From IMG/VR virus record IMGVR_UViG_3300025735_000294, positions 1 to 64,000 of that record: a DNA stretch of 64,000 nt; one strand, given 5' to 3'. Positions 49,532 to 53,593 of this stretch are shown here, piece by piece (within the stretch, counting starts at the first letter, position 1; each line of letters begins with the position of its first letter). The DNA comes from a virus. Lineage: Duplodnaviria; Caudoviricetes. Both the position numbers and the translations under genes were made by a program. The notes beneath the pieces are model-generated. The model was given only the letters and a program-made list of their open reading frames with translations, did not search any database and was not told where the DNA came from.

Positions 49532-50803
49532 ATGAAAATGAGCACTGTTTTACCACAGCAAAAAGCCGTAACTGAGGATGTCTTAGCTGCAGGGATTGAA
49601 GCGCTGCGTAGCCAAATATCTCTCGCCATGAAGCGATCTGCCGGTGATGACCTTACCGTGAGACTTTTTGAGAGTGCATTGCTCTCACTCGATAACCTGG
49701 TATCGGCTATCAACATACGATTGGACGATTCGGTTGATGAGTTTAACCGGGTTGTTGATCTGCTAGAACAGTATCAAGAAGACATGAACACTCATCATCT
49801 GGAGGTGGTCAAGCTATGTGGCTTGGAGATGGGGCCATATAGCGAGTTAGCCGGATTACTTGCTACCAGGCTCGAAGACCTTAAAATTCAGGTCCAGCAC
49901 GCCAATAATCGCACCGACGCCTCAATGCTGATGAACGACGAGCTTAGGCGTTCCTTCAACAAGTATAAAAAAGACTACCCTGAAAGCCTCGTAATTGACC
50001 TGCGGAGCCGTGAACGTGATAACAACAGCTTGAAGCGTGAGCGCAAGGCGCTCAAAGAGGAGATAGCTGAGCTTGGAAAAAGCCTGAGAGAACATAAGAA
50101 GAAATGCGTTCATCTTGAAAGTGATAACCTGGCTCGTGCGAAGGAAATCCAAACGTTAAAGGAAAACGATTTAGCGTTGAGAGAAACTCTTGATGAATAC
50201 AGCGGCATTCGGGACAAAGTGAAATGCTTCGATATCACAAAGAACGGTGGTAACGGAGGTTTTGCCTATATCTATAGCTACCCCTTTGGCCTGGCCGCCG
50301 ATGTAGGCCGTCGTCACGAAGTCATTTTAACCGCGCGTTTCCACTTTCAGATCCGGACCAGTCACCTTCTGGCCATGGATGTGATCCCAACAATATGGGG
50401 AGCTCCGTTATACAATCGGCTGAAGGATTTCGAGGAGAATTGGAACACTGAAATCGATGAAGAGCTCCACCAAAGGATCATGATGAAGCTTGAGAAGAGC
50501 TTCCCTAAGCTGCATAGGCGTATCAGTGCTTCCAAAGTGGCGAGTGTTGACGAACTAGATATGCGTCCCACTACGCTGGTGGTCCTTAAAGCACTGGGCT
50601 TTACGACCGTCTTCAATGTTGCATCTATACCATCTACTTTCATGCCTTCCATTGAAGGGTTAGACAAACAGATGGATGAGGAGATCGTTGCTTCGGTGCG
50701 CATGTGGGCATCCAAATGGGATAAACAGAACGGAATCGTCGAAGAGCTCTATGGCATGAAAAACACGGTAACAGGGCAAGTATTTTACAAAGCCAACAAG
50801 TAA
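49532..50803 (+). CDS. pmgS: P1 PmgS-like coiled-coil protein
   Basis: DVL.AGI, DDLT.R.F..A, long coiled coil, W.K.NG C-terminus as recalled for PmgS. Confidence 0.7.
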   Translation: MKMSTVLPQQKAVTEDVLAAGIEALRSQISLAMKRSAGDDLTVRLFESALLSLDNLVSAINIRLDDSVDEFNRVVDLLEQYQEDMNTHHLEVVKLCGLEMGPYSELAGLLATRLEDLKIQVQHANNRTDASMLMNDELRRSFNKYKKDYPESLVIDLRSRERDNNSLKRERKALKEEIAELGKSLREHKKKCVHLESDNLARAKEIQTLKENDLALRETLDEYSGIRDKVKCFDITKNGGNGGFAYIYSYPFGLAADVGRRHEVILTARFHFQIRTSHLLAMDVIPTIWGAPLYNRLKDFEENWNTEIDEELHQRIMMKLEKSFPKLHRRISASKVASVDELDMRPTTLVVLKALGFTTVFNVASIPSTFMPSIEGLDKQMDEEIVASVRMWASKWDKQNGIVEELYGMKNTVTGQVFYKANK

Positions 50804-50856
50804 TTAGATTTAGTATCAACAATCTAATTGAATTATCCATTTAGCAGTGTTAAATT
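50804..50856 (+). promoter_or_regulatory. Perfect operator abutting a sigma70 promoter (TTGAAT-17-TAAATT, extended -10 TG) for the RNA cluster
   Basis: TTAGATT tagtatcaac AATCTAA at 50804-50827; -35 at 50828, -10 at 50851. Confidence 0.7.
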
Positions 50857-50863
50857 TCCACAC

Positions 50864-51399
50864 GTTCGCTGAGGTTGGTGGACAGGGAGGCGGGAAGGAA
50901 CCCAGGTATATGCAAGCCACGGTCTTTCGCCCTTACCTGATCAAAATCAAATTTAAGCATTAGATTTTGAATCCTCCCTATACACCACGCCTCAACGGAC
51001 TGCTAATACATGGCATCGCCTTCCCCTTAACTGGGAGGATGGAAAAGCAGCCATTACAGAGATGACTACAGCTCATGCGCTAAGAACCTAGTTAATGAGT
51101 CAAATACAACGGGTCGTATTGTAGTCGTCTCTGCAATGGGAGTAGGACTAGCCAGCCGGAGGTGCTTTAACACCGGCAGTGACAGCGGATTAGTGCGATG
51201 AGCCCATACTCATCTTCCTCCTTAAACCAAAGAGGGTAATCGTATTCCCTGGCAACTGAATAGGGGGAAGTCAGAACGGAAGCGATTATGATTCTTTGTT
51301 CCGTGATATCACCGTTTAGCCCGCGCTAAGGGCTGTTAAGTAAAGGAATGGAATTGCTGTGTGTAGTCTTTGCCCATCTCCCACGATGGGCCTTTTTTT
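50864..51399 (+). ncRNA. Candidate large multi-domain structured RNA or RNA cluster ending in an intrinsic terminator
   Basis: No ORF >=60 aa; long-range stems 50864-50890/50972-51000 and 51051-51070/51120-51139; terminator GCCCATC..GATGGGC-T7. Confidence 0.5.
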
Positions 51400-51491
51400 A
51401 CACCAGCCCATAACAGGTAAGAGCATTGAGAACCGCCGAGACTGACTGAAATAAAGTTAAGTCCGTGCAAACGTCATGCAGTGCTCTTCCC

Positions 51492-51617
51492 GTTGTGGTA
51501 ATGCGGCTCAGCGCTCGTGGTAATTAGTGATGCCATTGCTTTTTCCTGTGGTTTGTATAGCGCCGCTGGTGGTTTTTCACTATCCCATCCAGCAGGGGGA
51601 GGCACCCCCGCCACAAC
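51492..51617 (+). ncRNA. tRNA-shaped C4/CI-like RNA, unit 1
   Basis: GTTGTGG/CCACAAC acceptor stem, AATGCGGCTCAGCG 5' module, T-arm mimic GGGGG-AGGCA-CCCCC. Confidence 0.6.
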
Positions 51618-51830
51618 GTTCTACAGTACAAAGGATCGAAACGGGTCGCCCTCCTAATGAGAGGAGTGTTTTGAGGAAGGTGAACGACAAGTAGCCCCTC
51701 CTGTCACGGCAGTGAAAGCGGTTGATGGCTTATCCCGCTCATAGAATGCCCCGTGAGGCTAAATAAATGCCCGCCTGCTCCCCGTTAACGGAGCACCACA
51801 ATCAAAACGGGTGTTAGACGCTCTTTTTGA

Positions 51831-51958
51831 TTGTGGTGAATGCGGCTAAGCGCACGCGGGGAATTGGTTTTAAATTTGAGCTCCAGTTCATAGGTAAAAA
51901 CTTCCCGTCCACGGTCTAAAGCCAGCCAAAGGACACCGGGAGGCACCCGGCACCACAA
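51831..51958 (+). ncRNA. tRNA-shaped C4/CI-like RNA, unit 2
   Basis: TTGTGGTG/CACCACAA acceptor, AATGCGGCTAAGCG, T-arm mimic CCGGG-AGGCA-CCCGG. Confidence 0.65.
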
Positions 51959-52026
51959 ACCAACACCACGCCCGGAGACGGCTAAGTAACCTGAATGGCG
52001 AAACGTCAATGTACCTGAACCGGCAA

Positions 52027-52081
52027 TGTGTGCCGAGGACGGAAGGCATATGCCGTGACAGCCGAGAGAGTTCGGCACACA
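52027..52081 (+). ncRNA. Mini C4-like RNA, unit 3
   Basis: TGTGTG/CACACA acceptor, GTGACAG element, GCCGA-GAGAGT-TCGGC 3' arm. Confidence 0.5.
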
Positions 52082-52228
52082 ACAGAGTGAATCATTCTTG
52101 CCTCTGGTCCGGGATCGCGACTGGTGGGGGCGGGTAGCCACACAAGCCGTAACGCGAAACGGCCCGAGTGGAGTTAAGCGAGGAGAACCTTATCGGGGAA
52201 GTGAAACCCTGGGGGGATGGTTCACCCT

Positions 52229-52358
52229 GTTGTGGATGTAGCTCAATTGGAACAGAGCGCCCCTGAAGGGGGAGTTGAGCGCTACCTAAGGATCATAACC
52301 CAGGGTATCTCATACGGTCCGGCCGGACGTTATCCGGGTTCAAGTCCCGGCACACAAC
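52229..52358 (+). ncRNA. tRNA-like RNA with canonical D and T arms and an oversized anticodon domain, unit 4
   Basis: TAGCTCAATTGGAACAGAGC D-arm; CCGGG-TTCAAGT-CCCGG T-arm; ~75 nt between them; bulged acceptor. Confidence 0.6.
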
Positions 52359-52395
52359 CTCATAGAATCAAGTAATCATAGAATTCTGTAATCAT

Positions 52396-52509
52396 ATGAA
52401 TATTTTCGAGTTCATGGACAAGAACCCAGGCCTGACATTGGCCATGATTATCGTTGTTGTCTTTGGGTTTGCTAACATCGCAAGTTCGCTCCGCCGCAAG
52501 AAGCCTTAA
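52396..52509 (+). CDS. 37-aa single-pass membrane peptide
   Basis: MNIFEFMDKNPGLTLAMIIVVVFGFANIASSLRRKKP; hydrophobic core with basic tail; below ORF-track cutoff. Confidence 0.5.
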   Translation: MNIFEFMDKNPGLTLAMIIVVVFGFANIASSLRRKKP

Positions 52510-52560
52510 GCCGCCTCGTTTAGTTTTGGTTAAGTCATTGTACTTTAACCTTACGCTCCC

Positions 52561-52665
52561 TGAGGTGAATCCCCCTAAGCGGCGGGGCATATCAGCTGCG
52601 ACAACACCTTGCCAATGCGAGTTCCAATGCTGTGAGGAGCTCACCGGGAGGCACCCGGCACCTCA
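52561..52665 (+). ncRNA. tRNA-shaped C4/CI-like RNA, unit 5
   Basis: TGAGGTG/CACCTCA acceptor, AAT-CCCC-CTAAGCG loop, CCGGG-AGGCA-CCCGG T-arm mimic. Confidence 0.65.
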
Positions 52666-52674
52666 AACTTTCAA

Positions 52675-52751
52675 GGCCCTTTAGCTCAGTTGGTTAGAGC
52701 AATCGACTCATAATCGACAGGTCGCTGGTTCAAGTCCAGCAAGGGCCATCA
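52675..52751 (+). tRNA. tRNA-Ile2 (CAT anticodon, lysidine type, reads AUA)
   Basis: Cloverleaf GGCCCTT..TAGCTCAG.TGGTTAGAGC..CTCATAA..GGTTCAAGTCC..AAGGGCC-A, closely like E. coli ileX; ends TCA rather than CCA. Confidence 0.9.
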
Positions 52752-52912
52752 CCTCTCTCTACTGTTTTCAAATCACATCATCCCGCTGGTGGGCGTGCAC
52801 CTCTCATAGAACACATACTCACTGATACCAAATCTAAACATAAACTTTTATGCAGTTATTAAACGTTTCCTAACTACCTACAATACCGGCAGTGTTGGTT
52901 TTTGGAGTTGTT

Positions 52913-53593
52913 ATGAGACGGATAACAAGCATGCACATTGCTGACTTAATGCTGGAAGAAAATCGCTATATGTCGATTCCAGAGATTATGGCCCTCGCTA
53001 AGCAACGACACCCTGACCTCGACATCACCCGTTGCCAGGTAACAAACATCACGAAGAGTTTTGTTAACTCAAAGTATGCATCCTGCGACTTCAAAAACGA
53101 CAGATATCCAAGGCTCTACAAGCTCTACTACCTCCACAATTACACCTTCAAACCGAGGGATGGCATTGCCAGCTCCCACCGCCGGTTCACAAAATCAGAG
53201 CTCATATGCAGCCTAGAAGTTTCTGCTTTAATGCTCCGGGAACGTCGATTCTTGACTATCACTGAACTGACGAAAATTGCGAAAAAAGAGTACCCGAGGT
53301 TCCGTGTAGAGCGCGGGCAGGTCATGAACATAGTGAGAGCCTTCGTTTCATCTAACAAAGCGCTCTGTGAGGTTGATGCAGATGCATACCCACACAGGTA
53401 CTTTCTGCGAAGCCTGAACGGGTACAAGTTCAAAGTTCGCAACCGCGATGAGCACTTAGACATTCACAATCTTCAAGCGCCTAGCAAAGCCTCCTGTGAG
53501 GTTTTAGAGCGGGAGCGACAATTACTCAGCAACTTAGCCAAAAACATCATGGATGATTCTGCACGCCGTCGTGAGGCAGCTTGTGGCAGATAA
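52913..53593 (+). CDS. lpa: Late promoter activator (P1 Lpa-like) with internally duplicated domain
   Basis: Directly upstream of pacA as in P1; two ~80-aa repeats ending YP.RY.L..L..Y.FK. Confidence 0.7.
   Translation: MRRITSMHIADLMLEENRYMSIPEIMALAKQRHPDLDITRCQVTNITKSFVNSKYASCDFKNDRYPRLYKLYYLHNYTFKPRDGIASSHRRFTKSELICSLEVSALMLRERRFLTITELTKIAKKEYPRFRVERGQVMNIVRAFVSSNKALCEVDADAYPHRYFLRSLNGYKFKVRNRDEHLDIHNLQAPSKASCEVLERERQLLSNLAKNIMDDSARRREAACGR

Follow-up and report, generated by a model that had tools for sequence, protein, structure and literature searches.

The window analysed here is a stretch of 64,000 nucleotides (nt) comprising positions 1-64,000 of the viral record IMGVR_UViG_3300025735_000294 (Caudoviricetes; the full phage record is 89.9 kb). 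Between 50804 and 52891 long open reading frames (ORFs) are absent from it, and the single small gene identified there by homology is a tciC-like ORF of 37 codons. This region holds an array of RNA modules, all co-oriented on the + strand. The array is a well-supported set of folded RNAs, three members of which (units 1, 2 and 5) come from a catalogued family of unknown function: as judged from sequence comparisons, they belong to STnc100 of Rfam (RF02076), the PasD class of prophage small RNAs (sRNAs). The parts of the array, with the evidence by which each is recognized, are as follows (R1 and R2 are covariance models described below; z is the z score of the folding energy).

51285-51401, + strand: RprA-like sRNA with an intrinsic terminator, just 5' of the array (Rfam RprA match, identity to rprA, terminator at 51372-51400).
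51404-51504, + strand: module A, a long hairpin whose arms are nearly constant and whose tip can be swapped (z -5.2; 17 distinct instances at 19 loci).
51494-51615, + strand: unit 1, a core-only STnc100-type pseudoknotted scaffold (R2 65.0 bits, R1 79.3 bits).
51650-51800, + strand: module C, a structured RNA of about 150 nt that is conserved (covarying hairpins; no Rfam match).
51794-51838, + strand: a member of a second long-hairpin family, with a minimal tip (z -5.5, reached by 0 of 200 shuffles).
51832-51957, + strand: unit 2, an STnc100-type scaffold (R2 90.2 bits; Rfam STnc100 38.5 bits).
52027-52081, + strand: unit 3, a simple hairpin outside the scaffold family (11-bp stem, z -3.7).
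52076-52234, + strand: module B, a long branched hairpin (global fold; 95-96% identity in relatives).
52232-52356, + strand: unit 4, an elaborated tRNA look-alike (Rfam tRNA 24.8 bits; canonical D and T arms).
52396-52509, + strand: tciC-like ORF for a small membrane protein of 37 amino acids (31% identity to P1 TciC).
52561-52665, + strand: unit 5, an STnc100-type scaffold (Rfam STnc100 61.8 bits, R2 63.1 bits).
52675-52748, + strand: tRNA-Ile2, anticodon CAU (ARAGORN; Rfam tRNA 72.7 bits).

At the Rfam gathering thresholds two matches are obtained, the tRNA and an STnc100 RNA at 52561-52665. A permissive scan of 50500-53500 (E <= 10) adds an STnc100 match at 51831-51962, the RprA-like RNA at 51285-51401 and a weak tRNA match with a large insert at 52232-52356, and no C4, isrK or any further Rfam family is found in that range. 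The STnc100 match of unit 5 (61.8 bits) lies above the gathering score of 47 and covers model positions 31-147 of 206, that of unit 2 (38.5 bits, E = 3.6e-6) lies under it, and unit 1 has no Rfam match at E <= 10. The features that the preliminary description of this array had noticed as common to the three units, the 5' motif, the CT(A/C)AGCG loop and the GC-rich arm with its AGGCA loop, are confirmed by their alignment. A descriptor scan shows in addition that in each of the three a 7-bp closing stem directly abuts a 5-bp hairpin with zero spacer. When a strict descriptor (a closing stem of 7 bp followed by AAT and, stacked on the 3' strand, a GC-rich hairpin of 5 bp whose loop is RRGCA) is run over the whole window, units 1, 2 and 5 are retrieved together with two obvious chance matches.

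Homologues were collected from P1, from phage-plasmids of Enterobacter, Leclercia and E. coli, from an Stx1c phage and a Klebsiella prophage, and from the lytic siphoviruses KpV2811 and Sf11; at least 120 IMG/VR stretches were added by pattern scan. Covariance model R1, made from 32 homologues including the window's own units, recovers 103 copies, of which 74 are distinct. Because R1 contained the window's units, a leave-out model, R2, was built from 29 sequences, all from other phages. In a search of both strands of the 64-kb window R2 finds unit 2 (90.2 bits), unit 1 (65.0 bits) and unit 5 (63.1 bits), with E-values from 3.5e-19 to 6.7e-13 (unit 2, 3.5e-19; unit 1, 2.4e-13), and there is no fourth match at E <= 10 anywhere in the 64 kb. 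The array had been described as five tRNA-shaped units; three of these, units 1, 2 and 5, are real members of one family matched by R2, whereas unit 3 is matched by no model and unit 4 belongs to another family.

The single-sequence folding energies of units 1, 2 and 5 are not significant (z -1.3, -2.2 and -1.0), and the fold is for that reason derived from comparative data. In the alignment of the 74 distinct homologues the four helices are paired in 97.7% of the cells, with changes on both sides in 19 of the 25 pairs; none of 500 shuffles reaches the observed values, and partners that have been slid out of register pair in only 29-49% of cases. A further helix is formed between the strand directly 3' of hairpin P2 and the loop of hairpin P4, generating a pseudoknot. 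At least 12 different complementary sequence pairs can form it, and these vary with the subfamily. Most lambdoid copies have CAGTTAA/TTAACTG, P1 has TGGTTAT/ATAACCA and unit 1 has TAGTGA/TCACTA; the helix is 9 bp long in unit 2 and no more than 4 bp in unit 5. The longest helix has a mean of 6.5, compared with 4.8 +/- 0.12 when the loops are shuffled, and across subfamilies it is 6.2 with the own loop and 4.6 with the loop of another subfamily. By this comparative evidence units 1, 2 and 5 are compact pseudoknotted RNAs and not cloverleaves, and their tRNA-like aspect is limited to the 7-bp stem stacked on the 5-bp hairpin. This 12-bp helix is also present in 109 of 120 among the pattern matches listed for viral contigs. 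The 7-bp "acceptor" end is nevertheless not a family trait, since about half of the lambdoid copies carry a stem longer by 13-15 pairs. Among 62 distinct copies, 29 have a closing stem extended by 7-15 pairs (by 13-15 in 28 of those), and the extra pairs covary.

The notion of a shared scaffold with a variable interior, with the units lying in the same orientation as the tRNA, is well borne out. All modules are on the + strand, and the three units of the window share 61-96% identity in the scaffold and 15-20% in the middle. Over the whole family the information content is 1.6-1.7 bits per scaffold column and 0.55 bits in the middle, and 55 distinct inserts are found among the 74 sequences.

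Units 3 and 4 have a different character. The minimum-energy fold of unit 3 (52027-52081) is a plain hairpin with an 11-bp stem, and no R1, R2 or Rfam match is obtained. The fold that had been proposed for it is one of two alternatives and lacks comparative support, and unit 3 was rejected as a miniature version of the scaffold. In unit 4 (52232-52356) the closing stem is stacked on a canonical T arm, as had been described, and a canonical D arm is present as well; three hairpins replace the anticodon arm and variable region, and one of these has an AUCAUAA loop, a CAU-type loop of 7 nt. Its family is nevertheless a different one: its score with the Rfam tRNA model is 24.8 bits, under the gathering score of 29, and neither Rfam nor R2 gives an STnc100-type match. 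PGAP labels the homologue of unit 4 in the E. coli CH468 plasmid unnamed5 (L146:3316-3444) as a 129-nt tRNA-Met; ARAGORN makes no call for it in the window and, in relatives, reports a tRNA-Glu carrying an intron of 44 nt. These calls are inconsistent and look forced, and a genuine intron-bearing tRNA was rejected as an explanation; we know of no bacterial splicing route for a 44-nt insert. Unit 4 is treated here as an elaborated tRNA look-alike. Its CAU-type loop stands beside a real tRNA-Ile(CAU): ARAGORN finds one tRNA, at 52675-52748 with anticodon CAU (Rfam tRNA, 72.7 bits), which is about 92% identical to E. coli genes annotated as tRNA-Ile and 85% identical to P1 trnI. The array therefore does end in a true tRNA-Ile2, as the preliminary description had it. 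The distance from the end of unit 5 to the start of this tRNA is 9 nt.

The units are separated by long hairpins and other modules, and for modules A, B and C and the spacer hairpins no Rfam match is found at E <= 10. Two closed structured modules had been proposed between the units. The upstream one (51411-51494), which is module A, stands: its z score of -5.2 is reached by 0 of 200 shuffles, the global fold pairs 51408-51498, and it is kept in other phages. The other (52084-52229), which is module B, has conservation only, since taken alone it folds no better than its shuffles (z -0.7); its identity of 95-96% is found in the Enterobacter and E. coli CH468 plasmids. Elsewhere module A occurs as 17 distinct instances at 19 loci with tips of 35-105 nt, and it nearly always precedes a unit that starts with GTGGTGAAT or GTGGTAAT. 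Two instances are in P1, one is flanked in an E. coli plasmid by a pair of tRNA-like 3' ends, and one in Sf11 precedes tRNA-Ser and tRNA-Arg. When the tips of the P1 module A instances (L001/L057/L043) are inspected by eye, T-arm-like hairpins with UUCAUAU and UUCGACU loops are seen, one of which is followed by CCACCA; the tip in the window has no such motif. The arms of the second hairpin family begin with CACCACAATCAAA; the tip is minimal in the window, and in other phages tips of about 75-100 nt are followed by GTGGTG-AAT units.

The 3' arms of these hairpins overlap the 5' closing strands of the units that follow, as observed for module A and unit 1, for the second hairpin and unit 2, and for module B and unit 4, the 5' strand of which overlaps with the outer stem CACAACAG/CTGTTGTG of the module. 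Because the strand is shared, the pairings of the spacer hairpin and of the unit are mutually exclusive. In both competing pairings an A-U pair of the window corresponds to G-C in the P1 lineage, which is a single compensatory example and not proof. Module C has the core CCTGTCACGGCAGTGAA ... AGAATGCCCCGTGAGGCTTAAA, and its hairpins covary (alignment A5); the 17-mer of the core is found in 54 IMG/VR contigs of lambdoid and P1-like size, and its 3' neighbour varies, being either a long hairpin or an RprA-like RNA. By eye, a hairpin loop of module C appears complementary to a downstream segment, and this pairing would make a second pseudoknot.

The surroundings of the array relate it to P1. In P1 the counterpart of unit 2 is an unannotated stretch (NC_005856 70080-70199; about 79% identity), which is located between upl and tciA, inside the C1-controlled ban operon; the same operon also holds a "dicF-like region", tRNA-Asn, tRNA-Thr, tciABC and tRNA-Ile2. 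The ORF at 52396-52509 is 31% identical to P1 TciC over its full length (E = 1e-7) and 42% identical to a 42-amino-acid ORF at the same place in the CH468 plasmid (L146). The same-strand order hairpin plus unit, tciC and tRNA-Ile2 is common to the window and P1. The stretch resembles the head of the P1 ban operon (NC_005856 68.6-71.3 kb) in having module A with an STnc100-like unit, tciC and tRNA-Ile2 on one strand, and a look-alike of a host sRNA is present in both (dicF-like in P1, RprA-like in the window). It differs from P1 in the absence of tRNA-Asn, tRNA-Thr, tciA and tciB and of a downstream ban, the downstream ORFs of the window occupying the positions of lpa and pacA in its relatives; in having three units where P1 has one; and in having no P1-type C1 operator within three mismatches. 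In the nearest relatives (the Enterobacter plasmids, the E. coli CH468 plasmid unnamed5, and Leclercia and Citrobacter plasmids) the same modules are present in a different order and number. Between tRNA-Ile and lpa the nearest relatives carry a gene (L146:4264-4839, L002:7301-7876) whose annotations conflict (a Thoeris anti-defence protein of the Tad2 family in one record, a type I toxin of the MW1434 family in the other); the ORF in this region of the window has 233 amino acids (52892-53593).

Elsewhere the scaffold has other contexts. In viral contigs it is single-copy in 105 of the 108 locus-strands that hold one, and a tRNA lies within 700 nt of only 2 of 111 scaffolds. A copy lies between Q and the lysis genes in a Klebsiella prophage, and another just 3' of stx1B in the Stx1c phage. 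In E. coli K-12 (BW25113, L147:7714-7837) an unannotated scaffold of 112 bits is found between dicB and a gene that we take, from its sequence, to be dicF, which is unannotated in the record; this copy has a closing stem that is longer by about 14 pairs, and the start codon of dicB lies downstream. The dicBF operon of the Qin prophage of K-12 is a case of a full scaffold copy in a polycistronic RNA, and it differs from the array in having one copy, a closing stem of about 21 bp, a protein gene after it and no tRNAs. The dicBF RNA is reportedly cut by RNase III and RNase E. A possible parallel among stable RNAs co-transcribed with phage tRNAs is that of species 1 and 2 (rnaC and rnaD) of phage T4, which are non-decoding RNAs of the tRNA cluster, matured by tRNA-processing enzymes and of unknown function. 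T4 differs in being a lytic myovirus, and rnaC and rnaD are not known to have a pseudoknotted core.

In published work on the family, STnc100 and PasD figure as prophage sRNAs that are related but differ in their seeds (bioRxiv 10.64898/2026.05.13.724894). PasD1 and PasD2 of enteropathogenic E. coli are discrete Hfq-bound sRNAs, detected by Northern blot and by RIL-seq (in which interacting RNAs are ligated and sequenced), of unknown function (PMC8550237). The same holds for EcOnc27/sRNA103 of enterohaemorrhagic E. coli, which is located just 3' of stx, is Hfq-bound and Northern-validated, and has no known function (PMC7873438); the R1 match in the Stx1c phage coincides with this position. STnc100 has also been found in vesicles of Shiga toxin-producing E. 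coli (PMC12370729). In our search of the literature no description was found of the P1 copy, the pseudoknot, the form linked to a tRNA operon, or a tRNA-like reading of STnc100. The window units share with STnc100, PasD1 and PasD2 and, going by its position 3' of stx, EcOnc27/sRNA103 the same core (the closing stem, P2 with its CUNNGCG loop, the variable insert, P4, and P5 with its AGGCA loop), and all are phage-borne with interiors that differ from copy to copy. They differ in being core-only, with a closing stem of 7-8 bp and without a promoter or terminator of their own, and in being present as three copies that are probably co-transcribed with spacer hairpins and a tRNA. The array had been put forward as a candidate for an undescribed system; units 1, 2 and 5 are instead a core-only, polycistronic, tRNA-linked form of STnc100/PasD, and no new kind of system is present.

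The transcription signals around the array were also inspected. The RprA-like RNA scores 66.1 bits against a gathering score of 70; its 3' 50 nt, which hold the seed region and terminator, are 98% identical to E. coli rprA, and its 5' part is unrelated. In relatives an RprA-like RNA is found in the middle of the array, and in other phages a segment like the RprA 3' part lies directly 3' of module C. A consensus scan finds no + strand sigma-70-type promoter in 50600-53000, hence none within the array, and no P1-type C1 operator is matched within three mismatches. An inverted repeat overlaps a sub-threshold promoter at 50804-50856, and its motif is repeated elsewhere only insignificantly. The strongest terminator-like site is at 51372-51400, before the array, and two weaker ones with 5-6 bp stems lie between units 1 and 2; apart from this weak pair there is no terminator-like site directly after units 1, 2 or 5. 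Because the units are co-oriented with the tRNA and have no promoters and terminators of their own, we infer that they come from a longer transcript. The sequence TCATAGAA is present at four + strand positions within 1.07 kb (51739, 52360, 52376 and 52804). The first lies in the core of module C, the next two closely follow unit 4, and the last is 56 nt 3' of the tRNA. For the window as a whole, both strands counted, about 2.3 copies would be expected; possible roles are a promoter -10 element, a late-promoter element or a cleavage motif.

Considered as a whole, the stretch is probably a non-coding RNA operon carried by P1-like phage-plasmids at the head of a ban-type operon, this confidence being that given to the entire explanation. 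Most likely, host RNases would release the units from a long precursor, and the units would then serve as stable small RNAs. This precursor would be cut by RNase III at the spacer hairpins of about 20 bp, and by RNase P at the 5' end of the tRNA, leaving unit 5 with a 9-nt tail; other tRNA-end enzymes would likewise act on the tRNA, and these and RNase P perhaps also at the stacked 7+5-bp ends. After cleavage, the 5' strand freed from the upstream hairpin could close each scaffold, and the mature RNAs of 105-126 nt might act in trans, the invariant core binding a conserved host factor and the variable insert giving each copy its own specificity. Binding of Hfq by the window units is doubtful, because they have no terminator.

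Several observations weigh against this explanation. The Rfam STnc100 matches span model positions 30-152 of 206, so that the 5' leader (1-29) and the 3' terminator (153-206) are absent, and the units lack the terminator and U-tail carried by their Hfq-dependent relatives. A strong intrinsic terminator (51372-51400) separates the array from its only plausible promoter, the arms of the spacer hairpins are almost invariant and their covariation is thin. The strongest conservation is in the core loops rather than in the inserts, which may be neutral. The unit inserts, hairpin tips and loops match the 89.9-kb phage genome in antisense over at most 12 nt, which is about what chance gives; the 421-nt upstream leader has one antisense match of 14 nt to this genome. 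Host-RNA mimicry was addressed by a distant blastn search of 50860-52670 against 5,426 E. coli genomes, in which only rprA and plasmid homologues are among the matches listed.

The preliminary description had compared the units with C4 and P4 CI, antisense RNAs of immunity that prevent an antirepressor operon next to them from being translated, and it is highly improbable that units 1, 2 and 5 are RNAs of this type. The resemblance is a general one, both being small closed-stem phage RNAs matured from a longer transcript (C4 is reportedly matured by RNase P) in a P1-like phage, and true C4 RNAs (RF01695) are indeed carried by the same phage. They are located elsewhere, however: in the phage record the C4 model matches only 76231-76318 and 76679-76766, both outside the window, as two genes about 450 bp apart with 48.1 and 79.5 bits (P1 has one match), and in the array (50500-53500) neither it nor the isrK model, to which the description had also pointed, has a match at E <= 10. 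Conversely, R2 misses the C4 loci of the phage itself, of P1 and of the Leclercia and Citrobacter plasmids, its best score there being 3.9 bits. The models exclude the C4/isrK reading in both directions, and the fold is also a different one, with its pseudoknot and its P2 and P5 loops. No ant or icd adjoins the array, as had already been noticed, and the loops are not complementary to an adjacent operon of this type, the antisense matches to the phage genome being at most 12 nt. Quite improbable, too, is the proposal that the units are tRNA mimics or decoys, which would sequester anticodon nucleases, tRNA-modifying enzymes or RNase P in the course of an infection. It draws on the closing stem and hairpin having together the 12-bp length of a tRNA acceptor and T arm, on the real tRNA next to the units, on the true D/T elbow and CAU-type loop of unit 4, and on similar pairs that lie between tRNAs in the E. 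coli plasmid and before tRNA-Ser and tRNA-Arg in Sf11. For units 1, 2 and 5 it fits poorly, since no tRNA-model match is obtained at E <= 10, a 5-nt AGGCA loop takes the place of the T loop, the D-loop GG and the anticodon arm are absent and a pseudoknot is present; moreover, the closing duplex is about 21 bp in about half of the copies, and the scaffold is typically single-copy (105 of 108 locus-strands) and remote from tRNAs (one within 700 nt for 2 of 111).

It is also conceivable, though unlikely, that the scaffolds and hairpins are cis-acting punctuation only: as signals for folding and cleavage in a polycistronic transcript they would keep the tRNAs, the RprA-like RNA and the mRNAs further downstream apart and protected, with neutral inserts and without any function in trans. 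The units lie directly 5' of genes or tRNAs (tRNA-Ile2 follows unit 5 at 9 nt, tciA follows the copy in P1 and dicB the one in K-12), the inserts vary strongly (0.55 bits), a duplex of about 21 bp that resembles an RNase III site is tipped by about half of the lambdoid copies, and modules are freely shuffled among relatives. A pseudoknot and near-invariant CUNNGCG and AGGCA loops, kept in lambdoid phages, P1-like phages and lytic siphoviruses, exceed however what a cleavage signal needs, and relatives of the units accumulate as Hfq-bound sRNAs with many RIL-seq partners (PMC7873438, PMC8550237). The pattern of conservation fits a protein-binding handle with a variable specificity segment, and it fits equally a cis-acting folding signal with a neutral insert. 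A bolder extension of the small-RNA explanation, in which the invariant core is a handle for a conserved protein of host or phage, the insert is a guide, and P1-type operons are programmable arrays of RNA cassettes cut by RNase III and RNase P, is speculative and improbable. If it were true, such cassettes would retarget one effector to different RNAs of the host or of rival phages, and the same system would include module C and the long swappable-tip hairpins as cassettes of other types.

The STnc100/PasD RNAs are among the most abundant Hfq-bound prophage RNAs of pathogenic E. coli, and their function is unknown. Unannotated copies lie in phage P1 and in the dicF-dicB operon of E. coli K-12, both of them textbook systems, and annotation pipelines miscall a look-alike of the unit 4 type as a 129-nt tRNA-Met. 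The array presents the bare core three times, with three interiors, in a tRNA-linked operon, and it thereby separates what the core needs (the fold, the pseudoknot and the two invariant loops) from the features that are supplied by its context.

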